From Ignavibacteriaceae bacterium (GTDB lineage Bacteria; Bacteroidota; Ignavibacteria; Ignavibacteriales; Ignavibacteriaceae): a stretch of DNA of 56,709 nt. The translations under genes were made by a program, and so were the position numbers. Positions 7,693 through 42,466 of the stretch are shown here, one piece after another (the first letter of the stretch is position 1; each line of letters starts with the position of its first letter). The stretch spans positions 1-56,709 of the forward strand of contig JBJKRP010000148.1 in NCBI GenBank assembly GCA_046704565.1. The letters are read 5' to 3'. The notes beneath the pieces were generated by a model. It had not been told where the DNA came from and searched no databases. It was given only the letters and a program-made list of their open reading frames with translations.

Positions 7693-9345
<1,653 letters not shown>

Positions 9346-21343: not shown

Positions 21344-22378
21344 ATGAAAAAGATGAAAGCGCTTGTTAAAAAAAATGCCGAGCCAGGGCTATGGCTGGAA
21401 GAAGTGCCCGTGCCGGAAGTCGGAGTGAATGACGTTCTAATAAAAATCCACAAGACATCAATTTGCGGAACAGACATTCACATCTATAATTGGGATGACT
21501 GGGCAAAAAAAACCATCCCGGTGCCAATGGTCGTCGGACATGAATATGTTGGAACAGTCGAAGCAATCGGAAGCAACGTACAGGATGTAAAAATAGGAGA
21601 GTTAGTAAGCGGCGAAGGGCATATTGTATGCGGCTATTGCCGCAACTGCCGCGCAGGCAGAAGACACCTTTGCCCAAACACTAAAGGAGTTGGAGTTAAC
21701 AGACCCGGCTGCTTTGCAGAATACTTGAGCATCCCTGTTTCGAACGTATGGCACTGCGACCGCTCGATTCCCGAAGACATTTTTGCTATATTCGATCCAT
21801 TCGGCAATGCAACACACACGGCGCTTTCGTATGATGTTCTTGGCGAGGACGTTTTAATTACCGGCGCAGGACCAATCGGAATAATGGCTGCAGGAATTGT
21901 TAAACATGCAGGCGCCCGCTACGTAGTTATTACGGATATAAACCCCCGGAGACTTGAGCTTGCAAAAAAAATGGGGGTAACGCGTACAGTAGATGTAACA
22001 AAAGAAAAGCTTGCAGATGTTATGTACGAGCTTGGAATGAAGGAGGGATTTGATGTTGGTCTGGAAATGTCCGGCAATACAGAAGCATTAAAAAGCATGC
22101 TATCGGCAATGTGCCACGGCGGAAAAATTGCGCTGCTTGGAATTCTTCCTAATAATGCAGCGATTGATTGGGAAACCGTTGTATTCAACGGATTAACTTT
22201 GAAAGGAATATACGGAAGAGAAATGTTCGAAACTTGGTACAAAATGACTGTAATGATCCAGACTGGATTGGACATTTCGCCGATCATTACGAACCGGTTT
22301 CCATTTGAAAAATTCAAAGAAGGGTTTGAATTAATGAAATCCGGAAATTCAGGAAAAATTATATTAAAATGGATTTAA
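21344..22378 (+). CDS. tdh: L-threonine 3-dehydrogenase
   Basis: Zn-ADH fold with [12 protein letters not shown], a structural-Zn Cys cluster [15 protein letters not shown], and GAGPIG. It is adjacent to kbl. Confidence 0.93.
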
Positions 22379-22474
22379 AATTTTAGTATTGCAGCTTCTC
22401 GTCTTAGCGGTAAAAAAAAAGACCGCTGAAACTACAAGCTGCTAAGAAACACAATTTCTAAGAAAGGAATACTT

Positions 22475-23659
22475 ATGAAAGAATCAATAAAAAAGTTTTA
22501 TACAAGTCAGCTTCAACAAATAGAAAGCGAAGGCTTATTTAAAGGTGAAAGAATTATTGCCGGTCCGCAGAGCGCAAGGATTAAAGTTAAAGACGGACAG
22601 CAAGTCTTAAATATGTGCGCCAATAATTATCTTGGTCTTGCCAATCACCCGGAGATAATAAAAGCCGCAAAAGAAAGCTATGATAAATGGGGCTACGGAC
22701 TTTCATCGGTACGCTTCATATGCGGTACCCAGGAAATACATAAAGAACTCGAAGAAAAAATTTCCGCTTTCCTCGAAACCGAAGACACAATTCTTTATAC
22801 CTCATGCTTTGATGCAAACGGCGGATTATTCGAGACAATCCTTTCCGAAGAAGATGCAGTAATCAGCGATGAATTAAACCATGCAAGCATCATAGACGGA
22901 GTTCGTCTTTGTAAAGCACAGCGCTACCGGTATAAAAACAGCGACATGAACGACCTCGAGGAAAAACTTAAAGAAGCCTCGAATGCAAGGATAAAACTGA
23001 TTGCCACCGACGGAGTATTTTCCATGGACGGTTTCATCGCAAAACTGAACGACATATGCAGCCTTGCGGATAAGTATAACGCACTGGTCATGGTCGATGA
23101 CTCGCATGCAGTCGGTTTTATGGGAAAGCGCGGCAAAGGCACACATGAATATAATGATGTGTTAGGAAAAGTTGATATAATAACAGGAACACTCGGTAAG
23201 GCGCTGGGCGGTGCAAGCGGCGGCTATACTACCGGAAGGAAAGAAATTATCGATATGCTTAGACAGCGATCGCGTCCATATCTGTTCTCCAATACCGTTG
23301 CTCCGAGTATTGTCTCAGCTTCGTTAAAAGTACTTGAACTTTTAAAATCATCAACGCAGCTAAGGGACAGGCTTGAAGAGAATACAAAATATTTCCGCGA
23401 AGGTATTACCAAGGCGGGCTTGACGATTAAACCAGGTGTTCATCCTATAGTCCCGATTATGATTGGCGACGCCTCACTTTCACAAAAGATGGCTGCACGT
23501 CTGCTTGAAAAAGGAGTTTATGTAATCGGCTTCTTCTACCCGGTAGTTCCGAAGGGAACTGCGAGAATAAGAGTTCAGGTTTCAGCGGCGCATTCAAAAG
23601 AAGATTTGGAATTTGCAATAGCTAAATTCAAAGAAGCGAAAGAAGAGTTCGGAATTTAA
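22475..23659 (+). CDS. kbl: Glycine C-acetyltransferase (2-amino-3-ketobutyrate CoA ligase)
   Basis: Alpha-oxoamine synthase family: [19 protein letters not shown], and the PLP-Lys context GTLGKALGG. Confidence 0.93.
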
Positions 23660-25032: not shown

Positions 25033-25724
25033 TTCAATTCTTTCCCAATTTATTAAAAGAATGTTAAGATTTTATAGCCGGCTTTTATGATTGGAAATGT
25101 ACTAATAGAACCGGCAGCAAAGATTTTTTCGTAGTACACTTTAAAATAAAGGGTCATCACGATTTTAATTAAACGGTATTCATCTTTCTGAGCCCAGGAA
25201 TGCATTTTCGAAAAGTGAATTTCGGATGAAAAATATTTCATTATATCTAACGAGTTCCCAGCCATTAAAAGCCCCTTTCAAACCTTCCAAAATTATCTGA
25301 AGTCATTAATACAAACTGCGAGCCAATTCATTCTTAGATATCTCTCGCTCCCATAGTTATTCTTAAATAGGTAGGCAGTTTTTCTGCAATTTCAAGACAT
25401 AAGGGTTAGAATTTGTGGGAATATAGTTAATAGGTTTACAATTTTTTCTGATTACCAAAGAATTGTTTGCCTCTGGCAATTATTGGCAAACATTCAATAT
25501 CCCGATTATAAAATCAAAAAATTCTTGAACACAAGGAATCTACAAGCCACAAACTGCCGGTTTTGTTTCTCACTAACAGCAAACTTTTTTTACCTGTATT
25601 GCCACGGATGAGAAAGATTAATTCACTTATCCATACAAAAAATTTTAATTTCATTAAAAAGTGAGAGAGGCTAATTGAAAGTCTCTATAGAAATAAATCA
25701 GCCGTGTAATCGCATTAAAAACTA

Positions 25725-26264
25725 TTAGCTGCAGAAATATTTGTAGGCTTCAACATGATCGGCGCAACTTCGGCAGTAACCGTTTCCTTTTATATCCACT
25801 TCTTCAATACCGGGAGAAGAATGCATTACACAATCCCAATCAGTACAATGACGAAGACCGAAGTTATGACCGAGTTCATGCAGTATTTCTTTCATCGTTC
25901 TTTCCAAAAGCAGATTGTTGTTAGATTTACCGGAATAAAATTCTTCGTGCAGCCTGCATACAGAGACTATAGAATGCTTTCCGTCGAGCTGAGCCTCGCC
26001 GAAAACAAATGTAAGCACGGGGACAAAAATATCTACGTCGGTTATTAAAATTATTTTGCCGTCTACGTTATTCGTTAGCTCCATTGCCCTGGCAATTACG
26101 CCGGTAGAATAGTATTGCCCCCTTTCTTTAGAAAGGAAATTTTCAAGCTCCAGGTTCAATTCTAATAATTGCACCTGAGAGGTAAACATTTTAGATAGAT
26201 TAACTAAAATGTTTTTGAGCAGCCAGGCGTTCGAAAATCTTACCGGAACAATAAAGATGTTCAT
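25725..26264 (-). CDS. Archaemetzincin-type zinc metalloprotease (peptidase M54-like)
   Basis: HELGHNFGLRHCTDWDCVMH...CRSC matches HExxHxxGxxxCxxxxCxM...CxxC. The start codon overlaps the upstream regulator's stop by 1 nt (TGATG). Confidence 0.7.
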   Translation of the reverse strand: MNIFIVPVRFSNAWLLKNILVNLSKMFTSQVQLLELNLELENFLSKERGQYYSTGVIARAMELTNNVDGKIILITDVDIFVPVLTFVFGEAQLDGKHSIVSVCRLHEEFYSGKSNNNLLLERTMKEILHELGHNFGLRHCTDWDCVMHSSPGIEEVDIKGNGYCRSCADHVEAYKYFCS

Positions 26265-27619
26265 CAGTCGGCATTTTTTTGAAGGTTATATTTATTGATT
26301 TTATTATAGAGAGTAACACGGTCAATTTCCAACACCTGAGCGCTGCGCGAAATGTTCCAATTATTTTCGTTCAGTATTTTGTTGATGTATCTCTTTTCCA
26401 TAGCAGCAAGGCTTTTGCACTCCTCATCAAAGTATAAGTTGTTTAACGAAACATGGAACGGCAAATCTTCAACAAGGATAGAGTCCGTCTTTCCAACGAC
26501 CATTGCTCTCTCAACAGCATTTTCAAGCTCGCGAACATTGCCCCGCCAATCATAATTAATTAAGAAATCCATAGCCTCCTTTGAAACACCTTTTACCGAC
26601 TTGTTCATCATTAATGAAAATTTATTGATAAAGAAATTTACCAGCAGCGGTATGTCATCTCGCCTTTCGCGCAGCGGAGGTATAATAATAGAAAAAACAT
26701 TCAGCCGGTAATATAGGTCTTCCCTAAACTTTCCTGCTTTCACGAGCTCTTCAAGAGGTTCGTTGGTCGCAATAATAACTCTGAAGTCGCTTTTAATAAG
26801 TTCGTTGCCGCCTACCCGGTTAAATTGCTTTGTTTCTATCACACGCAGCAGCTCTATCTGCATTTTGATTGAGATAGAACCGATCTCATCAAGAAAAATA
26901 GTCCCGCCGTCTGCAAGCTCAAACTTGCCTTTGCGCCTGAACTGCGCACCCGTAAATGCGCCCTTCTCATGACCGAACAGCTCGCTCTCAAGAATTGTTT
27001 CTGCTAAAGCCCCACAGTTAACCGGGATTATCGGAAAATATTTTCTCTTACTGTTAATGTGGATTGCCTTTGCTACAAGCTCTTTACCGGTTCCACTCTC
27101 GCCTCTTATCATTACAGTAGTGTCTGTCGGCGCAACAGTTTGAATAAGATCATAAATTTTCTTCATCTGGTAGCTCTCGCCGATCAAATTGTCCGGTCTG
27201 ATGATCTCGTCGATGCTTTCCTTCAAGTGAATATTTTCAATCTTCAGCGCTCTCTGCTCAAGAGCCTTTTTTACCAGGTGAGCAAGCTCGTCCGGGTCGA
27301 CCGGCTTGGTAACATAATCATAGGCGCCGTTTTTAAGAGCAGCTATTGCAGTCGGAACGGATGCGAAAGCGGTAATAAGAATTATCACCGAGTCTTTATC
27401 GATTGATTTAATCCTGTTCAATAGTTCAATACCGCTCATCCCGGGCATTTTCATGTCAACCAGGAGAAGATCAAATTTAGTCTCTTCATATTTCTGCAGA
27501 GCTATTTCTCCATCCCCGGCAGTATCAACATCGTATCCTTCTTCTTCGAACCAGTGGAAGAGAGATTCTCTTACGATCTTTTCATCATCCACAATTAATA
27601 TTTTTTCCTTTTTATCCAT
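26264..27619 (-). CDS. Sigma-54-dependent response regulator (NtrC family)
   Basis: REC domain, GESGTGKE, an intact ELFGHEKGAFTGAQ, GNVRELEN, and HTH ISRSAQVLEIDRVTLYNKI. Confidence 0.9.
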   Translation of the reverse strand: MDKKEKILIVDDEKIVRESLFHWFEEEGYDVDTAGDGEIALQKYEETKFDLLLVDMKMPGMSGIELLNRIKSIDKDSVIILITAFASVPTAIAALKNGAYDYVTKPVDPDELAHLVKKALEQRALKIENIHLKESIDEIIRPDNLIGESYQMKKIYDLIQTVAPTDTTVMIRGESGTGKELVAKAIHINSKRKYFPIIPVNCGALAETILESELFGHEKGAFTGAQFRRKGKFELADGGTIFLDEIGSISIKMQIELLRVIETKQFNRVGGNELIKSDFRVIIATNEPLEELVKAGKFREDLYYRLNVFSIIIPPLRERRDDIPLLVNFFINKFSLMMNKSVKGVSKEAMDFLINYDWRGNVRELENAVERAMVVGKTDSILVEDLPFHVSLNNLYFDEECKSLAAMEKRYINKILNENNWNISRSAQVLEIDRVTLYNKINKYNLQKNAD

Positions 27620-27627
27620 TTAATTAC

Positions 27628-29220
27628 CTAAGAAATATTCTCGTTTGCAGGCAAGATCAATCTGAATGTCGTTCCTTTAAGCGAAGTCTTTTCAACCTCT
27701 ATTGAGCCGTTGTGGTTTGTAACAATTCCGTAAACTACCGCCAGCCCAAGACCGGTTCCCTTTGAAGCTTCCTTAGTGGAATAGAACGGCTCGAAAATAT
27801 GCGGAAGGTCTTTGTTCGAAATGCCTGTCCCCTCGTCAATTATCCTGATAACCGCAGCATTATTTTCCCAGGCAAGTCGAACAACTATCTTACCTCCTTG
27901 CGGCATTGCTTCAATCGCATTAATTAGCAGGGACATTAAAGCCTGTTGAACTTTCTGTGCGCTGCAGTTAATCTCAATTGTCTCAACAGGATATTCCTTC
28001 TCAATTGCAACGTGATAGATTTCAAGATGGTGCTGTATTACCGTTATGCTCTTGTCTATTATCCTGGTAAGATTCTCCCTTGAAAACTCATCTCTTTCTT
28101 CATGAGAGAACAGCAGCAGGTCTTTTACTATTTTCCCGCAGCGCGAGGATTCGCCTGAAATCAGCTCAAGATATTCTATTAATCTCGAATACTCCGAATC
28201 TCTCTGCATCGATTGAAGCTTCCTGGTAATCAGCTTGCTGTAAGTCAAAATACCTTCCAGCGGATTGTTAAGCTCGTGTGCAACTGTTGCTGACAGCTTT
28301 CCTAGCGATGCAAGCTTTTCAATCTGATTTACCTGGTTATAAATATTTTTTAGCTCTTCCGTCTTTTCATTCACCTTATCATTTAAGGTCTCGGACCAAT
28401 TTTTAATTTCCTTGTATGCATCATCAAGTTTTACAGACATATCATTAAATCTATGCGCAAGCTGTCCGAGTTCATTTTGGGTATCGAGATCAATTTTATA
28501 TGAAAGATTCCCCTTGCTGATTTCTTCAATCCCTTTGGTAAATTTTTTAATCGGTCTATTGACAAGTACAGTAATGAATAGTCCGCAGAAGAAAGAAATT
28601 ACAAGGGTAATCAATAATGCATTTAGAATAATTTCCCTGGTATTCTTCGCTATAATCGCATCAAGCTTGTCCAGCCCTACCACAACATCAAGTACACCAA
28701 GTATTTGAACATTGGGTGAATGCGCATGGCAGGCGGCATTGTAGCAGTCAGGCTCATTCTGGATCGGATTAATTAGACCGAGCACTCTTTTGTTTTCAGG
28801 ATTCCTGTAAATACGGATTTTGTTTTGATTGTTTAAGCTGTTTAAAGGCACATTACTATTGTGGCAAACAATGCATGCCTCGGCTGACATGTCTACCTTT
28901 TTCATTATTTCTGCAGTATCAGTCGAGAATATTATCATCCCCTGCTTATTGTAAATTCTGATATTATTAACACCCATCTCGGTTCCGAGTGTCTTAATAA
29001 TTTCATGTACGTCTTCACGGCGGTTCAGGAGCATGCTGTAACGCGTCGACTTCTTAATCAAGTCGCTGATATTGTATGCACTTTCAAGACGTGATTCGGT
29101 TAAATATCCGTCAAGATTCCTCACGATAAAATATGTGTACGCGGCAAGAATGCTGAAGAGTATCAGAGAGATGGAAACTATAAGTCTTACACTTAATTTA
29201 TTTATCAACTTAGTTGTCAT
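27628..29220 (-). CDS. Sensor histidine kinase with periplasmic c-type heme-binding motifs, HAMP domain
   Basis: TM1, then a periplasmic domain with CIVCH (CxxCH) and CYNAACH (Cx4CH), then TM2 and a HAMP domain. Kinase motifs are H-box VAHELNNPL, N-box LLINAIEA, DEGTGI and GTGLGLA. Confidence 0.85.
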   Translation of the reverse strand: MTTKLINKLSVRLIVSISLILFSILAAYTYFIVRNLDGYLTESRLESAYNISDLIKKSTRYSMLLNRREDVHEIIKTLGTEMGVNNIRIYNKQGMIIFSTDTAEIMKKVDMSAEACIVCHNSNVPLNSLNNQNKIRIYRNPENKRVLGLINPIQNEPDCYNAACHAHSPNVQILGVLDVVVGLDKLDAIIAKNTREIILNALLITLVISFFCGLFITVLVNRPIKKFTKGIEEISKGNLSYKIDLDTQNELGQLAHRFNDMSVKLDDAYKEIKNWSETLNDKVNEKTEELKNIYNQVNQIEKLASLGKLSATVAHELNNPLEGILTYSKLITRKLQSMQRDSEYSRLIEYLELISGESSRCGKIVKDLLLFSHEERDEFSRENLTRIIDKSITVIQHHLEIYHVAIEKEYPVETIEINCSAQKVQQALMSLLINAIEAMPQGGKIVVRLAWENNAAVIRIIDEGTGISNKDLPHIFEPFYSTKEASKGTGLGLAVVYGIVTNHNGSIEVEKTSLKGTTFRLILPANENIS

Positions 29221-29318
29221 AAAAGCCCTATTCCCTTGCCGTAAAATTAGGAAGAACTTTTTCTACTTCCAACTTTATGACGATCAGACCTAAAAGCACA
29301 AAGATTAAGCAAAGTCTT

Positions 29319-30044
29319 TTAGCTGATTAGAGCTTGAAGTATGCCGACGTATTTTTCCCGCCCAACAAGTTGATGTAAATATTTAACTTGATCGCCTCCG
29401 TCAAGCATAGTAAGCCCGACTTCCGGATAGTTTGATTTAATCTCTTCGACAATCCCAAATGATTTTTTCTGTAGCACCTGCCATTCGCTATGTTCTATCC
29501 TCCCGGCAGAAACTTCCTGCTCAATAGCACCGATTATAGCTATCCATTTTGACTTTGCAAGATCATCGGCTGGATTATTAACCTTATCGTAGATGGAAAA
29601 GTTCATCGGTGCGGTTAAGGAGCTTGTTCCCCACTCACCGAAGAACTGAACGACGGGCTGCCCGCTTAAGATGCTTCTGCTTTGACTAAAATCCATAATT
29701 ATTCCGACATGATCGAGGAATGAAATGAAGAGAGGATTAACCCCGAGATAATAAGTATTTGGCAAAACCTGTTTGATAATAAAACAATGCTTTAAGTAAA
29801 TAAATTTTTCATCATACTTAATTGATTTCAGTCTTCTTTCAACTAAGTTGACGGCGCTCAGGATGTTATTTGTCTGCATCTCATTCTCGCCGTAGTTTCT
29901 CATTACTTTATCGAACCGGCAATTTTCACAGTCAAACTTTTTATCGCACAGCTTGTATTCAATAACATTAGACGCCATCCATATGCACTTCAGCAAGCCG
30001 TAAGAGTTATCGGAATAAAAATTATCTTCGTTCATTTTACTCAC
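29319..30044 (-). CDS. Cys-rich N-terminal domain fused to a GcvH-like (lipoyl-fold) domain, no lipoyl lysine
   Basis: N-terminal C-x12-C-x5-C-x2-C motif (CIWMASNVIEYKLCDKKFDCENC). The C-terminal half aligns by eye to GcvH (LGVNPLF..., SGQPVVQFFGEWGTSSLTAPMNF, KWIAII), with Trp at the lipoyl-Lys position. Confidence 0.5.
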   Translation of the reverse strand: MSKMNEDNFYSDNSYGLLKCIWMASNVIEYKLCDKKFDCENCRFDKVMRNYGENEMQTNNILSAVNLVERRLKSIKYDEKFIYLKHCFIIKQVLPNTYYLGVNPLFISFLDHVGIIMDFSQSRSILSGQPVVQFFGEWGTSSLTAPMNFSIYDKVNNPADDLAKSKWIAIIGAIEQEVSAGRIEHSEWQVLQKKSFGIVEEIKSNYPEVGLTMLDGGDQVKYLHQLVGREKYVGILQALIS

Positions 30045-30210
30045 TTAAAATTAATCGTTTAGATTTTGCCTTACTATTTCTTTTTTGTCTTTGAAAGAAG
30101 AAAGCCCCCATTAAGATCTCAAGATATATTTGGCATCAATTATTGCAGAAGATATAAAAGCATTGCTACGGAAATTACAGCCATTATTTTTCTTTGATTC
30201 GAAAATTATT

Positions 30211-30483
30211 TTATTCGCTTTGATTTTGTTTCTTATTAGTCTCAGCAGTTTTTTCATCTGTAATATCAATCCCGGAGCTTTTATTCACCTCTTTGTTTTC
30301 TTTCGATTTACCGCCGTCATACATTGTGGCTCCTACGAGACTAATGATAGGCTCTGTATTACTTGTTGAAATTTTTTCCATACGCTTACCCTTTGACTTT
30401 AACGCCATCGGATTAATTATAAGTTGAACGAAAAGGTCAACTGCAGCAAAGACAAGGATTAGAACTAATATAAACGTAAGCAT
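30211..30483 (-). CDS. Small single-pass membrane protein, hypothetical
   Basis: The ATG follows AAGGAA. The N-terminal TM helix is MLTFILVLILVFAAVDLFVQLI, followed by a charged tail. It competes with an antisense ORF at 30130-30369. Confidence 0.35.
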   Translation of the reverse strand: MLTFILVLILVFAAVDLFVQLIINPMALKSKGKRMEKISTSNTEPIISLVGATMYDGGKSKENKEVNKSSGIDITDEKTAETNKKQNQSE

Positions 30484-31086
30484 GACATATTCCTTATTTC
30501 TATCTGTTACTTTATCCTAAAAAATCAATTAATATACCATAAAGAAAATATGATTTCCCCTTTTCGTAAGAGTATGACAGGTAATGAGTTATAGAGTTTC
30601 CGGAGAATATCTAAATAGAATGGAATTAAAAAAATGTAGGCATATTCAACAGTCTTATGTTGAATTTTCCGTCAAACAACGGAGTCTTTCATTACTGCGC
30701 TTGCATCTTTTTCCTGCAGAATTATAATCGTAGGCGAGAAAAAATTAATTGCGCATTAACAACTATTTTTATTTAGCAATTGAAATAAGTATACCAGACG
30801 AAAAAAAGGATCAGAGAATTTCTTTACAAATCCCAAAATAAATTCTCAAATACAACAATAGAAACCGAGATGTGTTGCCATTGGTGAGAAGCCTTTTATT
30901 ACATTAAACAGAAAAAATTTTTCAAAGGTTTTATTCCATTTAAATTTTAATGTTTATAAAAATTAAGAAATAGAAATATTGCAGGTAACAGTTCTTGGCA
31001 TACTTTTATATAAACTTCAAAGGTCGAATTAACTAAATAATAGGACATAAGTAAAAAATTAATTTTTCACGAAGAAAGAGGGTAAG

Positions 31087-31986
31087 GTGGAAAAACAGAA
31101 TAGAAGAGAATTCTTTAAGACTTCAGCATTATTAGGCACTGCAATCACGGGTTTATTTTCAGGTACGACAAAGGCAGCCCCGAAAAATATTTTATCCGAA
31201 GATAGAATGGGAGTTCTTGTCGATACAACCGCGTGCATAGGCTGCAGAAGCTGTGAATGGGCATGCAAGAATGCACATGGAATTGAAACACCGCCTCTTG
31301 AAAAATACAGCGACAGATCGGTATTCAAAAAAATGCGCCGCCCTGATGTAAACGCTCTTACTGTTGTTAATGAATATTCAAATCCTCAGAACGCTGAACT
31401 GCCAACAGATATAAAAGTACAATGCATGCACTGCGATCATCCCGCATGTGTATCCGCATGTATTGTCGGGGCGTTTTCAAAGCAAGAGAACGGTTCGGTT
31501 ATCTGGGATACGAAACGCTGTATCGGATGCCGCTATTGCATGGTAGCCTGCCCTTTCCAGGTGCCTTCATTTGAATATGACAAAGCAATAAATCCGGAAA
31601 TTAAGAAATGCGATTTTTGTTTTGAAAGAACCAGAGCCGGCAAGCTTCCCGCGTGCGTTGAAATTTGTCCTGTTGAAGCGCTGACCTACGGACCGCGCAA
31701 CGACTTAGTTAAGATCGCTCGTGAAAGGATTAAAAGAAACCCGGAAAAATATTTCAATTACATATACGGCGAATATGAAGTCGGCGGAACTGCATGGATG
31801 TATATAGGGAACGAGGATCTAAGAAAGAAAGCATTTCCAAAGCTCGGGGACAAGCCCGCACCCGGCGTATCCGAAGCAATCCAGCACGGAATCTTTGCTT
31901 ATTTTGTTCCGCCGGTTTCGCTTTACGCCCTTCTCGGCGGCATAATGTGGATAACTAAAAACAGAAAAAATTCAGAGGAGGAATAA
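31087..31986 (+). CDS. Tat-exported 4x[4Fe-4S] ferredoxin-type subunit (HybA/NrfC/DsrO-like) with C-terminal TM anchor
   Basis: GTG start after AGAGGGTAAG and a twin-arginine signal NRREFFK. The four Cys clusters are CIGCRSCEWAC, CMHCDHPACVSAC, CIGCRYCMVAC and CDFC...CVEIC. A C-terminal hydrophobic helix is present. Confidence 0.85.
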   Translation: MEKQNRREFFKTSALLGTAITGLFSGTTKAAPKNILSEDRMGVLVDTTACIGCRSCEWACKNAHGIETPPLEKYSDRSVFKKMRRPDVNALTVVNEYSNPQNAELPTDIKVQCMHCDHPACVSACIVGAFSKQENGSVIWDTKRCIGCRYCMVACPFQVPSFEYDKAINPEIKKCDFCFERTRAGKLPACVEICPVEALTYGPRNDLVKIARERIKRNPEKYFNYIYGEYEVGGTAWMYIGNEDLRKKAFPKLGDKPAPGVSEAIQHGIFAYFVPPVSLYALLGGIMWITKNRKNSEEE

Positions 31987-31989
31987 ATC

Positions 31990-33234
31990 ATGGTATCTTA
32001 TATGAAACCGTCTCCGATTACTAAAAAATTTCTTACGCCCGGAGTTTTTGTTTTAATTCTTCTTGCGGTAAACGGACTTTGTTTCCTGTTTGCCCGATTG
32101 TTTTTTGGAATTGGGGCAGTCACGAATCTTAATAACCAATATCCGTGGGGAATCTGGATCGGAGTTGATGTTGCGGCAGGTGTTGCTTTAGCAGCAGGCG
32201 GTTTTACTACAGCAGCGCTCGGTCATGTTATGCACCGTACACACTATCACGATATTGTAAGACCTGCATTATTAACAGCAATGCTCGGATACACATTTGT
32301 CGCATTGAGTGTCTCAATTGATATTGGAAGATGGTATTACATCTGGCATCCTCTAATAATGTGGAATGGAACTTCTGCGCTCTTTGAGGTAGGAATTTGC
32401 GTGATGATTTATCTAACCGTTTTGTATATCGAATTTCTTCCAATAGTCACCGAAAGGTTTATCAATCATGTAAACTTTAAAGGCGCAATTTCCTTCTTAA
32501 ACAAACCTGTTGAAAAACTCCTCGTGGTTTTAGATAGAGGATTATCAAAAGTAATGTTTGTATTTATTATCGCCGGTGTTGTACTTTCAAGTCTGCATCA
32601 ATCCTCTCTCGGAACATTAATGGTTATTGCAGGACCGAAAATGCATCCGTTATGGCAGACACCCATTTTGCCTCTGCTATTTTTATTGTCGGCAATCTCT
32701 GTTGGGTTTCCAATGGTAATTTTTGAATCGATGATCGCCGCACGTTCATTCGGTTTAAAGCCTGAAATGGAAGTATTGTCCAGGTTGGGTTCAATAGTAG
32801 CGCCTATTCTTGGAGTATATCTTGCTTTCAAGTTAGGCGATATGTTTATCAGGGAAACGTTTGTTTATCTTAGAAGTTTCAATACGCAAAGTGTAATGTT
32901 CACAATTGAAGTTTTGTTCGGGATAATAATCCCGCTTAGGATGTTTCTATCCAAAGCCGTTTTAAAATCACCCCTTTGGTTGTTTGTCGCTTCGTGCCTG
33001 GTAATTTTCGGAGTTCTGATAAATAGAATAAATAACTTTGTTACGGCTTATACGCCTCCTTATTCATTCGGCTCTTACTTCCCCTCGTTTGGAGAAATTT
33101 CAGTGACTGTCGGATTCATTTCTCTACTCGTCTTATTGTACCGGGTTATTGTCTTTAACTTCCCGGTAATCAGCGTCTTCGACAGGTATCGTACCCCAAG
33201 AACCAAATACACAATTAGAGGCAGCGAGCTATGA
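31990..33234 (+). CDS. NrfD/HybB/PsrC-like polytopic quinone-interacting membrane subunit
   Basis: 414 aa with about 10 TM helices. It starts 3 nt after the FeS subunit's stop, and its stop overlaps the cytochrome start as ATGA. Confidence 0.8.
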   Translation: MVSYMKPSPITKKFLTPGVFVLILLAVNGLCFLFARLFFGIGAVTNLNNQYPWGIWIGVDVAAGVALAAGGFTTAALGHVMHRTHYHDIVRPALLTAMLGYTFVALSVSIDIGRWYYIWHPLIMWNGTSALFEVGICVMIYLTVLYIEFLPIVTERFINHVNFKGAISFLNKPVEKLLVVLDRGLSKVMFVFIIAGVVLSSLHQSSLGTLMVIAGPKMHPLWQTPILPLLFLLSAISVGFPMVIFESMIAARSFGLKPEMEVLSRLGSIVAPILGVYLAFKLGDMFIRETFVYLRSFNTQSVMFTIEVLFGIIIPLRMFLSKAVLKSPLWLFVASCLVIFGVLINRINNFVTAYTPPYSFGSYFPSFGEISVTVGFISLLVLLYRVIVFNFPVISVFDRYRTPRTKYTIRGSEL

Positions 33235-34394
33235 GAAAAATAATATTCATAAACGCTCTATTATTTACAGCTGTTCTTATTGGGCAAACAAAGCCTCCCA
33301 AAGGTCATGAACTCTTAACAAAGCTGACATGCAAAACATGCCATGGATGCGAAGTCCCGACGAAGCAAGACCCTTGTCTCACTCCATGTCCAAGAAATCA
33401 GATGGTGACAGTTCATCAATCAGCAGACAAGACTGTCAATGTAGTCAAGCTTGATGAGCTGTCAAAAAAATATTTACATGTTGTTTTTCCGCATAGAGCT
33501 CATGCTCAAATGTCGGAAATGTCGGGCGGCTGTATGACATGCCATCATTACAACACGAGCGGACCAATACAGCCATGTAAGAATTGCCATCAAGCCCAAA
33601 GGAACAGAGCCGATATCAGCAAGCCGGACTTAGAGGCAGCATACCACCGGCAATGTATTAACTGCCATCGCGAGTGGAGCCACGAGAATAGCTGCGTTTC
33701 ATGCCATGCATTAAGGACAAAAGATAGCGCCGTACATGTTACTACGGCTAAAAATTCTGAATCTATAAATCATCCTAAGATAGAAGAACCGGCAAAAGTT
33801 ATTTATAAGACAACCAGCAGTAAAGGCAAGCTTGTTACATTCTATCATGATGAACATTTTAATTTATTCGGCATAAGCTGCATCAAGTGCCATCAGCAGG
33901 AAAACTGTACAGAGTGTCATGACAAACAAAAAACCTCAATGCCTCAAAGGCAGGCAAATGTTCCTATAGAAATTCACAAGCCGGCGGCCCAGCATCATAA
34001 GCCTTGCTTTTCTTGCCATAGCGAGGATAAGTGCACTGTATGCCATTCAAACAAGCCTGAAGGTCCCTTTGACCATTCGGAAAGAGCAGGTTGGGCTTTG
34101 AATAAATTTCATAAAGTGCTGGCTTGTTCGCAGTGTCATGGTACTTCAGGTAGATTCACCAGGCTTGATAACAAGTGCGAGAGCTGCCACAACAATTTTG
34201 CTGCGGGTAAGTTCGATCATAGTATAACCGGTCTTAAGCTGGATGAAAATCATAAGGACGCCGACTGCGTTGATTGTCATCTTGAAAGGAATTTTTCGAA
34301 TCCTCCGTCATGCAAAAATTGCCATGATGATAAAAGTTATCCTAAAAATAAGCCCGGCAAGGAAGTTAAGGTTTCGTTAAAAAAGGAAAAATAA
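33231..34394 (+). CDS. Periplasmic multiheme cytochrome c (13 CxxCH motifs)
   Basis: A signal peptide followed by 13 CxxCH motifs, counted directly: CKTCH, CMTCH, CKNCH, CINCH, CVSCH, CIKCH, CTECH, CFSCH, CTVCH, CSQCH, CESCH, CVDCH, CKNCH. The spacing is cytochrome c3/c7-like, for example FPHRAH...CMTCHH. Confidence 0.9.
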   Translation: MRKIIFINALLFTAVLIGQTKPPKGHELLTKLTCKTCHGCEVPTKQDPCLTPCPRNQMVTVHQSADKTVNVVKLDELSKKYLHVVFPHRAHAQMSEMSGGCMTCHHYNTSGPIQPCKNCHQAQRNRADISKPDLEAAYHRQCINCHREWSHENSCVSCHALRTKDSAVHVTTAKNSESINHPKIEEPAKVIYKTTSSKGKLVTFYHDEHFNLFGISCIKCHQQENCTECHDKQKTSMPQRQANVPIEIHKPAAQHHKPCFSCHSEDKCTVCHSNKPEGPFDHSERAGWALNKFHKVLACSQCHGTSGRFTRLDNKCESCHNNFAAGKFDHSITGLKLDENHKDADCVDCHLERNFSNPPSCKNCHDDKSYPKNKPGKEVKVSLKKEK

Positions 34395-34449
34395 AAGTAA
34401 CAAAGTTGATTTAATTCTCGTAGATTTCTGTTGGTAATTAAAGAAATGT

Positions 34450-36333
34450 TTGCGCTTTGGGAAAATTGAAAACATGTTCAGGAAAATCGGTTTCAAGTTA
34501 ATATTAGCTGTCGGGGTTACGGCGCTTATTACAATAGGTATTTTTGCTTATTTCAATATACAGTCCCATACCAGCAGTTTACTTGCAGAAGTCGAACGGA
34601 GCGCAAACCAGCTCAGTGAAACTGTAAAGCATAGTACGCGCTACGACATGCTTCTGAACCAGCGTGACCGTATTCATAAAATTATTAATACTATTGGCGA
34701 GCAGCCAGGGATTAGAGATGTGAGAGTCCTTAATAAAATGGGAGAGATTATTTATTCTTCTCACACTGAAGATATCGGCAAGATGGTTGATAAGAAAACC
34801 GAAAGCTGTTATAAATGCCATGCCGCCGACAAGCCTCTTGAAAGACTTCCGATTAGAGACAGGACAAGAATTTTTAGAATAAGCCCCGACTCATCCAGGA
34901 TTATGGGAATCATAAGCCCCATTTATAACGAGCCTTCTTGCTGGCAAGCCGACTGCCATGCCCACTCTAAAAGCCAGACGGTACTCGGCGTTCTTGATGT
35001 TACAATATCTTTAAGCGATGTTGATGCTCAAATCAAAAAAGGTGAAATCGAAATTGTAATCTTCGCGATTTCAGGTGTGATTGCTTTAAGCTTCATCGTT
35101 GGATTTTTTGTACGAAGATGGGTTGACAAGCCTGTAAAAGAATTATTGAATGCTACCAACCAGGTTGGAGTCGGGAACCTTAATTATACTATTAAGGACA
35201 GACGCGATGACGAACTTGGAATGCTTGCCCGTTCATTCAACAATATGACAAAGAAACTTTCTGAAGCCCGCATGCAGCTTTTCCAATCGGATAAAATGGC
35301 TTCGCTCGGAAGACTTGCCGCCGGAGTTGCACACGAAATAAATAATCCTCTGACCGGAGTCCTGACTTACAGCAGCTTTCTTTTAAAACGTACTCAAAAC
35401 AATCCCGAAATGCAGGAAGACTTGAAGGTGATTGTTCGGGAGACCAAAAGAAGCCGTGAAATTGTAAAAAGCCTTCTTGATTTTGCGCGTCAATCAATTC
35501 CTAAAAAGAATGATGCAAACATAAACGATATTATTCTTCACGCTGTTAGCGTTGTGGAAAACCAGCTTGCTATCGATCATATTAAATTAATAAAAAATCT
35601 TGACCCCGATCTTCCAAACACAACGATAGACTCCAACCAGATACAACAGGTTATAATCAATCTTCTGGTAAATGCGCATGATGCAACCGGAAAGGAAGGC
35701 GGTACAATTACTATTTCTTCCCTTAAGATAAGCCTCTCGCCATACGGGATTACTCATATTAAAAAGGCTCTATGTCCTAAACGCCATGATATGATGGATA
35801 ATGAAGTAAAGATCGAAGGTATGGCTTCAATAAAAGTAAAAGTACGCTCGAACGGCAGCGAAGGTTTTATTAATTTAGATCCTGTTTATGGAAAGACCAG
35901 GCACCAGTACGGAATTGAGCCCGATATCAAAAAAGGTATTGCAATGATGTGCCCGCAGTGCAGTCAATCCTTAATTATCGAGGGAAAGAAATGCCCGAAG
36001 TGTGAGGCACCGGTTTATAGTTTCGAGATCCCGTCTCAAGGTTTTTTTGAAGGCTGTACAAGGAAAGGCTGTGGATGGCAGAAATGGGATTACGTTGATG
36101 TCGGCGGTAAGAAAGAATATATTGAAGTAAAAATATCCGATACCGGGTGTGGAATTGCAAAAGAAGATTTATCAAAAATATTTGAGCCTTTTTTTAGTAC
36201 AAAGGGACAAAAAGGAACCGGACTTGGTTTGGCGGTTATTTGGGGAATTATCGATAACCACAACGGGACTATTGGTGTTGAAAGCGAATTAAATAAAGGA
36301 ACGGAATTTACCATAAGGCTGCCGCTTATATAG
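34450..36333 (+). CDS. Sensor histidine kinase with periplasmic heme-c motifs, HAMP, and a Cys-rich insertion in the ATPase domain
   Basis: Paralog of the 27628-29220 kinase, with CYKCH and CWQADCH in the periplasmic domain. Kinase motifs are H-box VAHEINNPL, N-box NLLVNAHDA, and G-boxes DTGCGI and GTGLGLA. About 130 extra residues lie between the N and G1 boxes. The ATG at 34474 (MFRKIG...) is a plausible alternative to the TTG start at 34450. Confidence 0.85.
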   Translation: MRFGKIENMFRKIGFKLILAVGVTALITIGIFAYFNIQSHTSSLLAEVERSANQLSETVKHSTRYDMLLNQRDRIHKIINTIGEQPGIRDVRVLNKMGEIIYSSHTEDIGKMVDKKTESCYKCHAADKPLERLPIRDRTRIFRISPDSSRIMGIISPIYNEPSCWQADCHAHSKSQTVLGVLDVTISLSDVDAQIKKGEIEIVIFAISGVIALSFIVGFFVRRWVDKPVKELLNATNQVGVGNLNYTIKDRRDDELGMLARSFNNMTKKLSEARMQLFQSDKMASLGRLAAGVAHEINNPLTGVLTYSSFLLKRTQNNPEMQEDLKVIVRETKRSREIVKSLLDFARQSIPKKNDANINDIILHAVSVVENQLAIDHIKLIKNLDPDLPNTTIDSNQIQQVIINLLVNAHDATGKEGGTITISSLKISLSPYGITHIKKALCPKRHDMMDNEVKIEGMASIKVKVRSNGSEGFINLDPVYGKTRHQYGIEPDIKKGIAMMCPQCSQSLIIEGKKCPKCEAPVYSFEIPSQGFFEGCTRKGCGWQKWDYVDVGGKKEYIEVKISDTGCGIAKEDLSKIFEPFFSTKGQKGTGLGLAVIWGIIDNHNGTIGVESELNKGTEFTIRLPLI

Positions 36334-36342
36334 GCGAATGGA

Positions 36343-37149
36343 ATGAATAAACAATTCGACATATTGATTATAGACGACGAGCAAGTTATTACCGAAGCAG
36401 TAAACAAAATCTGTTCGGCGGAAGGATACAGGGTCGACTCGAGCCTTGATGCCGCAGATGCAATCATTAAACTTGAAACGAATTTTTACCGCTTGATATT
36501 ATGCGATATAATGCTTCCGGGGATGGACGGATTCCAGTTTCTCGATGAGGTCTCTAAGAAAAAAACTATTTCGCCCGTTATAATGACTACTGGGTTTTCG
36601 ACAGTAGAGAATGCCGTTAAATCATTATACAACGGGGCAATAGATTTTATACCGAAACCGTTTACAGCCGATGAATTACTTTCATCCGTCTCACGCGGCT
36701 TAAAATATTTGGAAATTCAAAAAAAATTATTCGAGACGGGAAGCCGCAGGAATGATGAATCTATAATCTATGTTCCATGTCCGGCTAAGTATTACAGACT
36801 TGGTTATTCAAGCTGGGTTAACTCAGATACCTCAGGCTCTGCTGTTGTAGGAGTTACGGATTTATTCCTTAAGACCATCGCTTCAATAAACGGAATTGAC
36901 TTGCTAAAGGTCGACGGCGAAATAGTGCAGGGAAATTCATGTGCTCAATTAAGCTCAAAGGAATATTATTCCCATGCAGTGTTAAGCCCGGTCAGCGGGA
37001 GAATAATAGAAAGGAACGAAAGCCTGATTGAAGAAATTAACACCATCGAAAAAGACCCGTACTTTAACGGATGGCTTTACAGAATAATACCATCCGATTG
37101 GCAGTACGAAATACAAAACTTAATACCGTGCAGTTCGGATAGAATGTAA
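36343..37149 (+). CDS. Response-regulator receiver fused to a GcvH-like domain
   Basis: REC domain: IIDDE, LCDIMLPGMDG, MTTG, PKPF. The C-terminal stretch VVGVTDLFLKTIASINGIDLLKVDGEIVQGNSCAQLSS...SPVSGRIIERNESL...DPYFNGWLYRI aligns to the GcvH core VGITxxAQ...PVSGxV...PYxxGW. Confidence 0.7.
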   Translation: MNKQFDILIIDDEQVITEAVNKICSAEGYRVDSSLDAADAIIKLETNFYRLILCDIMLPGMDGFQFLDEVSKKKTISPVIMTTGFSTVENAVKSLYNGAIDFIPKPFTADELLSSVSRGLKYLEIQKKLFETGSRRNDESIIYVPCPAKYYRLGYSSWVNSDTSGSAVVGVTDLFLKTIASINGIDLLKVDGEIVQGNSCAQLSSKEYYSHAVLSPVSGRIIERNESLIEEINTIEKDPYFNGWLYRIIPSDWQYEIQNLIPCSSDRM

Positions 37150-37198
37150 ATAGAATTATAATAAACGAGAGGAAGAAAAACTCTAAGGAGAATACAAT

Positions 37199-38356
37199 AT
37201 GCCACTTTTAATTATTGCAGTTATATTATTTGTTATCGCCGATGTATTGATAAGATACTCGGGTAAAAGGATACAGGAAAAGAAGCTACGCAAAGACCGC
37301 GAAGCCGCTTTAAACGTAAGTTTGAATCTTGATTTTACAAGAGAGGCAAAGTCCTTAAAACGCGTTGAAGTTGAAAGTCCTAAAGCTAAAATTTTATGTG
37401 TTGATGACGAGCCGGTAATACTCGACAGCTTCCGGAAAATTCTTGTGCTTGAAGGATATTCGGTTGATACGGTTGAAAACGGAAAGGAAGCAGTAGGGCT
37501 GGTTCAAACACATCATTATGATTTCGTTTTCACCGACTTAAAGATGCCGGAAATGGACGGAGTTGAGGTTACCAAGTCCGTAAAGCACATAAGACCCGAT
37601 ATTGATGTTGTAATCATAACCGGGTACGCTACTGTTGAAACCGCCGTTGAGTGTATGAAGTTCGGTGCAATGGACTATGTACAGAAGCCTTTCACCGAGG
37701 ATGAACTGCTTGACTTCGTTAAGAAAATTTTAATTAAACGGCAGGATAGAATTCAGAAACAGTTGAAACCGCAGGTTCACATCACTCACTTCGCCGAATC
37801 TAAACATTTTATGACTTACGAGTTCGCTATTCCTGGAGGAGTTTTCATCTCCGCAGGACACTGCTGGGCAAGCATGGAACAGGACGGCGCCGCAAAAGTA
37901 GGTATCGATGACTTTGCCAAAAAGCTCATTGGTAAAATTACCGGTATCGAGCTTCCCAACCTGGGAATGGTTGTTAAAGCCGGACAGCCGTTGTTTACAA
38001 TTAAACAGGATGACCGCAGTGTCGCATTCAATTCGCCGTTGAGCGGCAAGGTAATTAAAATTAATACTATCCTGCCGACAAATCTTGAAGTCCTTGATGT
38101 TACCTCATATAATACCAACTGGATTTGTGTAATTGATACTGAAGATTTAGATAGTGAACTAAAAACCCTGAATATCGGCAAGAGCGCAGTCACTTTCTAT
38201 CAGGATGAAATAGACAGGTTCATTCAGCTTAGGAAAAATATTCCGGTTAAGGATAGTTCGCAGACCCAGAGGAACAACGAACTTTATATAGGAGAATTTG
38301 AAAAGCTTGATAATGCCGACTGGGACAAGATGGTCACAGAGTTATTCAAAAAATAA
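37199..38356 (+). CDS. Membrane-anchored receiver domain fused to a GcvH-like domain
   Basis: N-terminal TM helix MPLLIIAVILFVIADVLI, then a REC domain (CVDDE, FTDLKMPEMDG, ITGY, QKPF). The C-terminal stretch KVGIDDFAKKLIGKITGIELPNLGMVVKAGQPLFTI...SPLSGKVIKIN is GcvH-like. Confidence 0.7.
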   Translation: MPLLIIAVILFVIADVLIRYSGKRIQEKKLRKDREAALNVSLNLDFTREAKSLKRVEVESPKAKILCVDDEPVILDSFRKILVLEGYSVDTVENGKEAVGLVQTHHYDFVFTDLKMPEMDGVEVTKSVKHIRPDIDVVIITGYATVETAVECMKFGAMDYVQKPFTEDELLDFVKKILIKRQDRIQKQLKPQVHITHFAESKHFMTYEFAIPGGVFISAGHCWASMEQDGAAKVGIDDFAKKLIGKITGIELPNLGMVVKAGQPLFTIKQDDRSVAFNSPLSGKVIKINTILPTNLEVLDVTSYNTNWICVIDTEDLDSELKTLNIGKSAVTFYQDEIDRFIQLRKNIPVKDSSQTQRNNELYIGEFEKLDNADWDKMVTELFKK

Positions 38357-40784: not shown

Positions 40785-41774
40785 TCAGGTATTCTCACTC
40801 CGTAAATTTTTTATCAGGTTAATTATGTCCCCGGGCAGCTCGGAATCGAATCTGACTAATTCTTTTGTACGGGGATGAATGAAACCGAGCGTCTTTGCAT
40901 GCAGCGCCTGACGAGTCATAACCTCGAGAAGATTTTGTACCCGGCTTTTCATCTTTGGAAGATTTGAGCCGTAGACAATTTGTCTGCCGCCGTAAGTTGC
41001 ATCACCGAACACCGGGTGATGTATGCTTGAAAGATGAACCCTGATTTGATGTGTTCTCCCGGTCTTCAAATTTATCTTTAACAAAGAAGCAAACTCAAAC
41101 TCTTCAAGTACCTCATAAAAAGTTATTGCAGTCTTGCCTTCGGAAGCGCTGACGGAAAATTTTTTTCTATCGGATTTGCTTCTGGCTATATTCAAATTTA
41201 TCTCACCTTTCTTTTCTTTAAACAATCCCCAGGCAACAGTCCAATATTCTCTTTCTATTGTATGTTTTGAAAATTGCTCGGCAAGCTTTGCATGTGTCCA
41301 GTCGTCCTTTGCTACTACGAGAAGTCCGCTGGTATCTTTATCTATACGGTGAACAATTCCCGGTCTGCCGGCTTCATGCAGATTGCTTAGCTTTTGAGAA
41401 TGATGCAGCAACGCATTAACAAGTGTGCCCGTATAGTTTGCAAAAGCCGGATGTGCAACCATACCTGCAGGCTTATTAACCACCAGAAGAAATTCATCCT
41501 CATAAACAATATCCAGCGCAATCTCTTCGGGCTCGGCTTCTTCCGGGTGTGGGGAAACAGGCACTGCTGCTTCAATAACATCGCCCGGAAGTACTTTGTA
41601 GCTCGGTTTTACAAATCCTCCGTCTACAGTAACCAGTTTAGCTTCGATCAGTTTCTGAACTTTGGTGCGTGTTGCATTTTCTATCTGGCTGGCAAGAAAG
41701 ATATCAAGGCGTTCCTTCTTTTTCCCTTCAGGAATTTTTATCCTGTACTTCTTTTCCGTTATCAGGTTCGCCAT
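40785..41774 (-). CDS. rluD: 23S rRNA pseudouridine synthase, RluD subfamily
   Basis: N-terminal S4 domain (ERLDIFLA...), catalytic HRIDKDTSGLLVVAK, and the RTHQIRVH motif. Confidence 0.9.
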   Translation of the reverse strand: MANLITEKKYRIKIPEGKKKERLDIFLASQIENATRTKVQKLIEAKLVTVDGGFVKPSYKVLPGDVIEAAVPVSPHPEEAEPEEIALDIVYEDEFLLVVNKPAGMVAHPAFANYTGTLVNALLHHSQKLSNLHEAGRPGIVHRIDKDTSGLLVVAKDDWTHAKLAEQFSKHTIEREYWTVAWGLFKEKKGEINLNIARSKSDRKKFSVSASEGKTAITFYEVLEEFEFASLLKINLKTGRTHQIRVHLSSIHHPVFGDATYGGRQIVYGSNLPKMKSRVQNLLEVMTRQALHAKTLGFIHPRTKELVRFDSELPGDIINLIKNLRSENT

Positions 41775-42465
41775 TGCTTAAATCATCTTTAGTTTCTTTC
41801 TTTCCGAACTCTCTAATTTCTCCGCTGCCGTTTCTTCCGGTCTCATCTTCAACATCTGACATGTCGTCTACTTCGGAATTTACATTTGAAGACGAGACGC
41901 CGACTTCAGGTTCAAGATATTCTTCCGTTTTATTTTGTCTATAAAAGAAGAGTAAAATTAAAACGCCGATTGTTACTGCCGCATCGGCAAAATTAAAAAT
42001 AGGCCAGCGGTCAAAGCTTCTTCCGAATAAACTGAAATTAAAAAAATCGAAATCAAGGAAGTCTACAACTCTGCCGTAAAACAGCGGGGCATAATGATAA
42101 AAGACTCCGTAGAACATTCTATCGATCAGGTTGCCGACCGCACCGCCAAGTATAAAAGCAATTGCAAGCCTTAGAGATAAGCTTTTCTTTCTGATAATAT
42201 AAAGATAAATAAGCAAGCCTATGCTGGCAACAAGAGAGAAGACCGAAACCCACAGCTTCATATCAATGCCCGGGTCAAAGCCGAAAGCCATTCCGGGATT
42301 TTCAATAAAGGTAAGCCTGAAGAAATTTCCTATGATCGGTATTCTTTCACCTTCATACATTCCCGCATAATGAAGATGCAGGAAAGGGATTGAAAATCCT
42401 TTTACAAGTAATTTCGAAGCCTGATCAATTATTACGATGGCAAGCGAGACAAATAAAATTCTCAA
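41728..42465 (-). CDS. lspA: Lipoprotein signal peptidase II paralog with acidic C-terminal extension
   Basis: GNLIDR and FNFAD (catalytic Asp motifs) are present. The start is TTG, 1 nt after the upstream lspA stop. The last roughly 70 aa are acidic and low-complexity, and the 3' end overlaps the rluD start by 47 nt. Confidence 0.75.
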   Translation of the reverse strand: MRILFVSLAIVIIDQASKLLVKGFSIPFLHLHYAGMYEGERIPIIGNFFRLTFIENPGMAFGFDPGIDMKLWVSVFSLVASIGLLIYLYIIRKKSLSLRLAIAFILGGAVGNLIDRMFYGVFYHYAPLFYGRVVDFLDFDFFNFSLFGRSFDRWPIFNFADAAVTIGVLILLFFYRQNKTEEYLEPEVGVSSSNVNSEVDDMSDVEDETGRNGSGEIREFGKKETKDDLSNGEPDNGKEVQDKNS

Positions 42466-42466
42466 T

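Follow-up and report, generated by a model that had tools for sequence, protein, structure and literature searches.

A GcvH-fold protein with a four-cysteine domain and tryptophan in place of the lipoyl lysine, encoded beside a heme sensor kinase in an Ignavibacteriaceae genome

The H-protein of the glycine cleavage system (GcvH) is the textbook carrier that works through a lipoyl swinging arm. We describe here a protein that combines the predicted H-protein fold with a tryptophan at the position of the lysine to which the arm is attached. It is encoded on the minus strand, at positions 29319 to 30035, of a 56,709-nucleotide stretch of DNA from an Ignavibacteriaceae bacterium (contig JBJKRP010000148.1 of assembly GCA_046704565.1; hereafter the window). 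The protein, referred to below as the Cys4-GcvH protein, consists of an N-terminal four-cysteine (Cys4) domain, a GcvH-fold core and a C-terminal helical extension, and belongs to a widespread, previously undescribed family characterized by a Cys4 domain, the H-fold and a GxTMxDGG extension. The window copy has all three features, its cysteines reading C-x12-C-x5-C-x2-C, and every family-invariant residue is intact. In most relatives the gene is preceded by genes for a membrane-bound quinone module, which the window has lost, and followed by a gene for a heme-motif histidine kinase, which the window retains. We favor, at slightly better than even confidence, the view that the protein works in the cytoplasm, free of lipoate, as an adaptor or sensor subunit through which the quinone module is connected with the kinase circuit.

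The minus-strand open reading frame at 29319 to 30044 is confirmed and would give 241 residues from a GTG start. The ATG at 30035, near which the homologs begin, is the likelier start and yields a product of 238 residues (protein record P0002), whose numbering is used throughout. An AlphaFold2 (AF2) model built on 36 homologs has a predicted local distance difference test score (pLDDT) of about 90 over residues 60-205, while the N-terminus is poorly determined. In a Foldseek comparison of this model with the PDB the top 22 matches were H-proteins only, at a probability of 1.0 and with template-modeling scores between 0.54 and 0.78, most of them about 0.7 (normalized to the target). They include the H-proteins of Escherichia coli (3a8i/3ab9), Thermus thermophilus (1onl) and cattle (3klr), a human LIAS complex (8ugo) and entry 5a35. 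Together with profile comparisons, the model places a barrel-sandwich hybrid core of the GcvH type at residues ~74-180 (29496 to 29816, minus strand).

Neither the protein nor any of its 36 close relatives (0/36) matches a family in Pfam or NCBIfam, so that all of them stay below the gathering threshold of PF01597 (GCV_H), and a profile of the close family (A1) gives only chance-level matches in the PDB. The homology becomes detectable through intermediates. The wider family comprises 905 representative clusters at E<=1e-3, and its distant full-length members (260-315 residues), in which the Cys4 domain and the DGG motif are both preserved, score 29-77 bits on the Pfam GCV_H model. A wider profile that includes distant members (A2) retrieves E. 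coli GcvH from the PDB at an E value of 1e-16. The sequence contains neither a signal peptide nor a transmembrane segment; the Cys4-GcvH protein is cytoplasmic.

The pairing of the family profile with the PDB entry for E. coli GcvH is ungapped around the lipoylation site, the segment ligewgtitlksP lying opposite AESVKAASDIYAP and the two hairpins being equal in length. It aligns Trp135 with the lysine of the E. coli sequence ESVKAAS, and thus puts this tryptophan in the lipoyl-lysine column. In the AF2 model Trp135 sits at the turn joining strands 127-133 and 136-141. The G-E-W-G tip is encoded at 29628 to 29639 on the minus strand, with the Trp135 codon at 29631-29633, and a GxWG tip is found in 82 of 83 sequences from Ignavibacteriota. 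Other branches of the family, where sampled, have a tip of the form [DE][DEG]G, and lysine occurs in none of the aligned sample. The protein is therefore unable to carry lipoic acid.

The N-terminal cysteines, in the stretch CIWMASNVIEYKLCDKKFDCENC, form the motif C17-x12-C30-x5-C36-x2-C39 (29919 to 29987, minus strand). All four are invariant in each of three alignments (36/36, 44/44 and 83/83 sequences), and the 12/5/2 spacing is kept in 230 of 236 copies of the domain. In the distant relatives P0166, P0209 and P0231, the H-fold is preceded by two to four tandem copies, of which those of a second type read C-R-Y-M/E...C-x5-C-x2-C. This arrangement identifies the Cys4 segment as an autonomous module. 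It is a small one for which we found no counterpart: the best PDB match of a Cys4-domain profile (A5) had an E value of 0.87, no Pfam match was significant, and an AF2 model of the isolated domain (47 sequences) reached a pLDDT of 51, too low for a fold search. The domain may bind zinc or an iron-sulfur (Fe-S) cluster.

An earlier reading made from the sequence alone had anticipated much of this. It had pointed out the cysteine motif, proposed the GcvH-like fold and placed a tryptophan at the lipoyl-lysine position, all of which the alignments and the model bear out. It had also considered a role in glycine cleavage unlikely, a view that the replacement of the lipoyl lysine by tryptophan upholds.

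Beyond the H-fold the chain continues as a long helix, a loop reading G207-L-T-M-L-D-G-G214 (29394 to 29417, minus strand) and two further helices. The loop motif, Gx[TS]MxDGG, recurs in two further products of the operon. It is present in 70 of 83 members of the Cys4-GcvH family, in 68 of 69 sequences of TM-GcvH, a GcvH-fold paralog that begins with a transmembrane (TM) helix, and in all 40 sequences (40/40) of a single-TM protein of 83-90 residues; in these last two proteins it lies in the cytoplasmic tail. A BLASTP comparison of the Cys4-GcvH protein with TM-GcvH and with the two receiver-GcvH (REC-GcvH) proteins of the window gave nothing significant except the DGG motif. At the profile level, hhalign joins the Cys4-GcvH and TM-GcvH families with 97.2% probability and an E value of 4.5e-11 over 163 columns that span the H-fold and the extension. 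We conclude that these proteins follow a common plan, in which a variable N-terminal module (Cys4, a TM helix, or a TM helix plus a receiver) precedes the H-fold and the DGG extension. As a separate observation, a similar Asp-containing TM helix opens the small TM protein, TM-GcvH and the TM-bearing REC-GcvH protein at 37199-38356 (for example AAVDLFV, LIDMLV, IADVLI). One relative's TM-GcvH also has a weak precomputed match to PF28260, "DVU_0533", which we take to be HmcD.

To place the gene in its usual context we compared loci from four relatives (32-70% identity) and from 80 species-representative genomes, nearly all of them labelled as metagenome-assembled genomes of Ignavibacteriota or Bacteroidetes, with neighbors mapped by tblastn. 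The canonical order is: small TM protein (absent in some), TM-GcvH, FeS_B (a 4x[4Fe-4S] protein), NrfD_B, Cys4-GcvH, the histidine kinase HK1, a sigma-54-dependent regulator and an M54 peptidase; the Pfam-positive branch of the family shows this order too, in three loci. NrfD_B lies directly upstream of the Cys4-GcvH gene in 71 to 73 of the 79 informative loci and HK1 downstream of it in 74 of 80. The CxxCH and Cx4CH heme motifs of HK1 are present in 81 of 81 sequences. The distance from the NrfD_B stop to the Cys4-GcvH start has a median of 1 nt, often with an overlap of 8-14 nt; the two genes are translationally coupled. The gap to HK1, in contrast, has a median of 161 nt, from which it follows that the Cys4-GcvH gene is the last cistron of a structural sub-operon.

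The sequence-only reading had described the protein as stand-alone. This holds for the present genome and a few others; in most relatives the gene is the fourth of the TM-GcvH/FeS/NrfD operon. It had also placed the gene directly upstream of HK1 in the same orientation with a 98-nt gap, which the coordinates confirm, had noted further GcvH-like domains nearby, which the two REC proteins provide, and had staked its proposal on the conservation of the cysteine motif and of the linkage to this kinase family in homologs, both of which we find.

The membrane module is missing from the window. The region is colinear with locus L001 of a relative at 76% nucleotide identity, except that the L001 segment 7241-9970, which encodes TM-GcvH, FeS_B and NrfD_B, has no counterpart. 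The ~2.7 kb that relatives carry there is reduced to a junction of 166 nt (30045 to 30210) separating the small TM gene (30211-30483) from the Cys4-GcvH gene. No remnants of the lost genes were detectable at this junction, and the window contains no second B-type FeS/NrfD pair. In the closest relatives, at 73%, 70% and 69% identity, a gene ends one base before the Cys4-GcvH gene; it encodes NrfD in the latter two and an unassigned partial product of 107 residues in the first. Since the closest relatives thus retain an adjoining upstream gene, the loss is specific to the lineage of the window.

It is not the only such event. On a maximum-likelihood tree of the Cys4-GcvH proteins FeS_B and NrfD_B are missing at five places (the window, L013, L019, L054 and L063+L064), each with a well-supported sister that retains them. 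The pair was lost independently at least five times, and in all five cases the Cys4-GcvH gene and HK1 were kept. Branch lengths can be compared in four. The window branch measures 0.20 against 0.21 for its pair-keeping sister L008, and the corresponding values are 0.072 for L013 against 0.10 for L011, 0.061 for L054 against 0.083 for L051, and 0.024 for L019 against 0.077 for L022. L063+L064 has a long stem and no such comparison; the rate evidence concerns four of the five losses. As no branch is longer after loss of the pair in these four, the constraint on the protein cannot come from FeS_B and NrfD_B alone.

The Cys4-GcvH protein is probably still functional in this genome. We infer for it a docking role, a set of partners and the binding of a metal. 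The H-fold would act as a protein-docking or output module instead of a swinging-arm carrier, the invariant tryptophan at the hairpin tip would be a contact residue, and the Cys4 domain would hold the zinc ion or Fe-S cluster. In its normal setting the protein is made together with a membrane pair of the Hmc/Nhc/HybAB type, formed by the 4x[4Fe-4S] protein and the NrfD quinone subunit, and would couple the state of this quinone module, or the redox or metal state of the cytoplasm, to the kinase and its regulator. In the present genome it would work with HK1, with the response regulator RR1 and with the small TM protein, possibly also with the FeS, NrfD and cytochrome proteins of a neighboring module, described below. 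Fusions of receiver domains to GcvH domains in the same locus support the idea that the H-fold is a signaling output or docking module. The tight coupling to NrfD_B favors a subunit-like role, and its persistence beside HK1 where the pair has gone favors a signaling role; it is the combination of the two arguments that leads us to prefer an adaptor or sensor subunit.

Several observations weigh against this view. The tip tryptophan is restricted to the Ignavibacteriota branch, so that, given the acidic or glycine residues of the other branches, no single tip chemistry is conserved across the family. The pLDDT of the Cys4 domain is about 50 in AF2, in context as well as alone. FeS_B lacks a twin-arginine (Tat) signal (0/73, as opposed to 40/40 for its paralog FeS_A), yet NrfD_B appears to have the usual topology, which leaves the docking face for a cytoplasmic subunit ambiguous. 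Lastly, all the deletions could be recent, in which case retention need not mean function. With regard to the third point, FeS_B keeps a C-terminal anchor of the FeS_A type (in L001 the gene is at 8034-8834), and no Tat-signal partner for it is encoded in the operon. An inverted NrfD_B, which would put the signal-less FeS_B in the cytoplasm, was considered and is unsupported, the pattern of Lys/Arg in its loops being the same as in NrfD_A.

The strongest competing explanation is that the protein serves the kinase and regulator alone, as a dedicated accessory sensor. Its Cys4 domain would sense cytoplasmic redox state, oxygen or a metal, perhaps through an Fe-S cluster, its H-fold would bind the cytoplasmic domains of HK1 or the receiver and modulate phosphotransfer, and the FeS/NrfD pair would be a regulated target and not a partner. 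We regard this as rather unlikely. In its favor, the adjacency to HK1 outlasts all five losses of the pair, with no acceleration in the four that can be judged; HK1 itself lacks a sensor domain in the cytoplasm; and the REC::GcvH fusions amount to Rosetta-stone-type support for an interaction between receiver and H-fold. Moreover, a second Cys4-GcvH paralog (in L010, L012, L014 and L067) or a 142-residue GcvH-like gene (in L001) lies just upstream of a second NtrC-family paralog, in the same slot. It is the spacing of the genes, with a median of 1 nt on the NrfD_B side and 161 nt on the HK1 side, that fits this explanation poorly, being what one would expect if the membrane module had the protein as a structural subunit. 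The sequence-only reading had proposed a redox- or metal-sensing accessory of the kinase or of the REC-GcvH proteins. The part of this proposal that links the protein to the kinase and regulator is consistent with the five losses in which it stayed with HK1; what escaped that reading was the primary FeS/NrfD quinone context and its deletion.

The remaining explanations fare less well. That the protein transfers electrons, a Cys4-bound Fe-S cluster serving as the relay that connects the membrane module with an acceptor in the cytoplasm, in the manner of HmcF or DsrK, is suggested by the position of its gene in a redox operon beside FeS and NrfD genes and by the arrays of two to four Cys4 copies in some relatives, which recall ferredoxin-like modules. 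We nevertheless consider it improbable. The genes upstream of the kinase encode only FeS, NrfD and GcvH-fold proteins, with no partner cytochrome b among them; the window protein has a single Cys4 site and neither a CCG nor a ferredoxin motif; neither Pfam nor the PDB offers an Fe-S family that its Cys4 domain matches; and the protein is kept where the pair is gone. Slightly less credible still is the notion that the gene is a decaying, functionless leftover of the deleted operon. TM-GcvH, FeS_B and NrfD_B have indeed disappeared, and downstream of the kinase genes the window carries only a 70-residue GcvH-like remnant (25053 to 25265, minus strand), the N-terminal half of the 142-residue gene that in L001 (14682-15110) stops 1 nt short of the second NtrC-family paralog; a deletion of ~200 bp truncated it. 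These two losses indicate that the locus is undergoing reduction. The Cys4-GcvH reading frame itself, however, is intact and complete in its invariant residues, its branch is no longer than that of the module-keeping L008, the gene is likewise retained in four other independent losses, and the small TM gene survives together with a promoter-like site. As for a genuine lipoyl carrier of the GcvH or LbpA type, active in glycine cleavage or sulfur oxidation, the GcvH fold and the source label of one relative ("glycine cleavage system H lipoate-binding protein") are all that recommend it, and we give it practically no credence. Tryptophan occupies the lipoyl-lysine column in all but one of the 83 Ignavibacteriota sequences and lysine never does so among the aligned sequences sampled from the wider family; and the Pfam GCV_H model gives the window protein no score. 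The sequence-only reading had noted the absence of gcvT and gcvP, and we saw neither among the window's open reading frames of >=100 codons (translations read by eye over the 56.7 kb), nor any lpd or sHdr gene there, and the loci of relatives likewise showed none of these genes.

Returning to the adaptor or sensor subunit that we prefer, it is tempting to speculate that the lysine-less H-fold with its DGG extension is a general signaling or adaptor domain that plugs into NrfD quinone modules and two-component systems. Taken as a whole this proposal is tentative, and we think it possible rather than probable. In such a scheme receiver domains, TM helices and Cys4 domains may be interchangeable inputs. 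The Cys4 domain may be a hitherto unknown redox sensor of the Fe-S or thiol kind, making the Cys4-GcvH protein a redox switch resembling a one-component system, and this switch may act on the heme kinase/sigma-54 circuit by tuning it, or on quinone turnover by gating it directly. To judge from the five natural deletions, it would be useful even without an FeS/NrfD pair of its own.

Several known systems invite comparison. With GcvH proper (PF01597; 3a8i/3ab9, 1onl) the protein shares the barrel-sandwich hybrid fold, with template-modeling scores of 0.72-0.78 to these three entries, an equal hairpin length and a homology that profile A2 makes detectable. It differs from GcvH by the tryptophan, by the additional Cys4 domain, by the ~60-residue C-terminal helical DGG extension, by the lack of a gcvT/gcvP context and by going unscored with PF01597. 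The TM-GcvH and REC-GcvH paralogs, too, have an H-fold without the lipoyl lysine and are encoded in the same operons, TM-GcvH also sharing the DGG extension; their N-terminal module is a TM helix containing an Asp, or a receiver, whereas our protein begins with Cys4 and has the GxWG tip. GcvH-like proteins have been recruited beyond glycine cleavage before. LbpA of the sHdr sulfur oxidation system and GcvH-L of Staphylococcus aureus and Streptococcus pyogenes, the latter represented by 5a35 among our fold matches, are reported to be lipoylated on a conserved lysine (PMC6067878, PMC12440151). The Cys4-GcvH protein, in contrast, lacks the lysine, and it is encoded among genes for a kinase, a regulator, a protease and FeS/NrfD proteins, not beside sHdr or SirTM/macrodomain genes.

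On the membrane side, the Hmc and Nhc complexes of Desulfovibrio and the HybA-HybB pair of E. coli resemble the normal partners of the protein, which are a tail-anchored 4x[4Fe-4S] protein plus an NrfD protein, with no catalytic subunit, and the small single-TM proteins HmcD and NhcD parallel the small TM proteins of the operon. On its cytoplasmic side, in contrast to the present operon, Hmc has HmcE and HmcF, a cytochrome b and an HdrD-like protein; a further difference is that FeS_B lacks a Tat signal. We know of no H-fold protein in Hmc. A cofactor-free, lipoyl-like domain in a membrane redox complex would have a precedent in the N-terminal barrel-sandwich hybrid domains of NqrA and RnfC, which are structural parts of such complexes. 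The likeness to NqrA is seen at the sequence level as weak matches to PF05896 (NQRA_N) in paralogs of the Cys4-GcvH protein, not in the protein itself, and the complexes differ. On the composition of Hmc and Nhc, see also bioRxiv 10.1101/2023.11.02.564894. In the literature we found no description of the Cys4-GcvH family, of GcvH proteins associated with NrfD or with response regulators, or of an archaemetzincin associated with sigma-54.

These findings document an H-protein fold devoid of its cofactor site across hundreds of sequence clusters and fused to a new Cys4 domain, within a conserved gene set that joins a quinone module, a heme sensor kinase, a sigma-54 regulator and a protease. If the H-fold is indeed a docking or output domain, it would provide a signaling route to respiratory complexes that bypasses transcription, and would account for the existence of REC-GcvH response regulators that do not bind DNA. 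The window represents a natural experiment in which the Cys4-GcvH protein and the kinase have outlasted the deletion of the membrane pair, and as such it points to the likely partners.

The remaining genes of the set in the window deserve a brief description. HK1 (27628 to 29220, minus strand) is a HAMP histidine kinase whose CxxCH and Cx4CH motifs are periplasmic. It is followed on the same strand by RR1 (26264 to 27619), a sigma-54-dependent response regulator, and by an archaemetzincin-type M54 peptidase (25725 to 26264), the last conserved gene of the set. At the other end, the small TM protein that opens the operon (30211 to 30483, minus strand; at 7055-7306 in L001) is 90 residues long, with an Asp within the TM helix and the motif VGATMYDGG on the cytoplasmic side. 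Its gene is preceded, at a distance of about 40 nt, by a near-consensus sigma-54-type promoter-like site, TGGTAT-N5-TTGA (TGGTATATTAATTGA; 30525 to 30539, minus strand), whose position is kept in relatives. At least 20 loci have an element of the form TGGTAT-N5-TTGC ~45 nt upstream of the first operon gene; the window and its closest relatives have TTGA instead of TTGC at -12. A scan of 29100-30700 for sigma-70 promoters and terminators found no more than expected by chance.

Divergent from the operon, on the plus strand at 31087 to 38356, lies a paralogous module A encoding an FeS protein with a Tat signal, NrfD, a multiheme cytochrome, a second kinase (HK2) and the two REC-GcvH proteins (36343-37149 and 37199-38356), which match Pfam GCV_H at 62 and 61 bits, respectively. 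It holds the only FeS/NrfD pair remaining in the window. Farther away, the plus strand at 21344-23659 carries a threonine dehydrogenase-like gene and a 2-amino-3-ketobutyrate CoA ligase-like gene, a glycine-forming pair that also flanks the locus in L001 and L003; in L090 the neighborhood includes two ADH_N genes, and the association may be a coincidence. On the opposite side of the operon, at 41728-43057 on the minus strand, are two tandem LspA-like (lipoprotein signal peptidase) paralogs, the first of which has a long acidic C-terminal tail.

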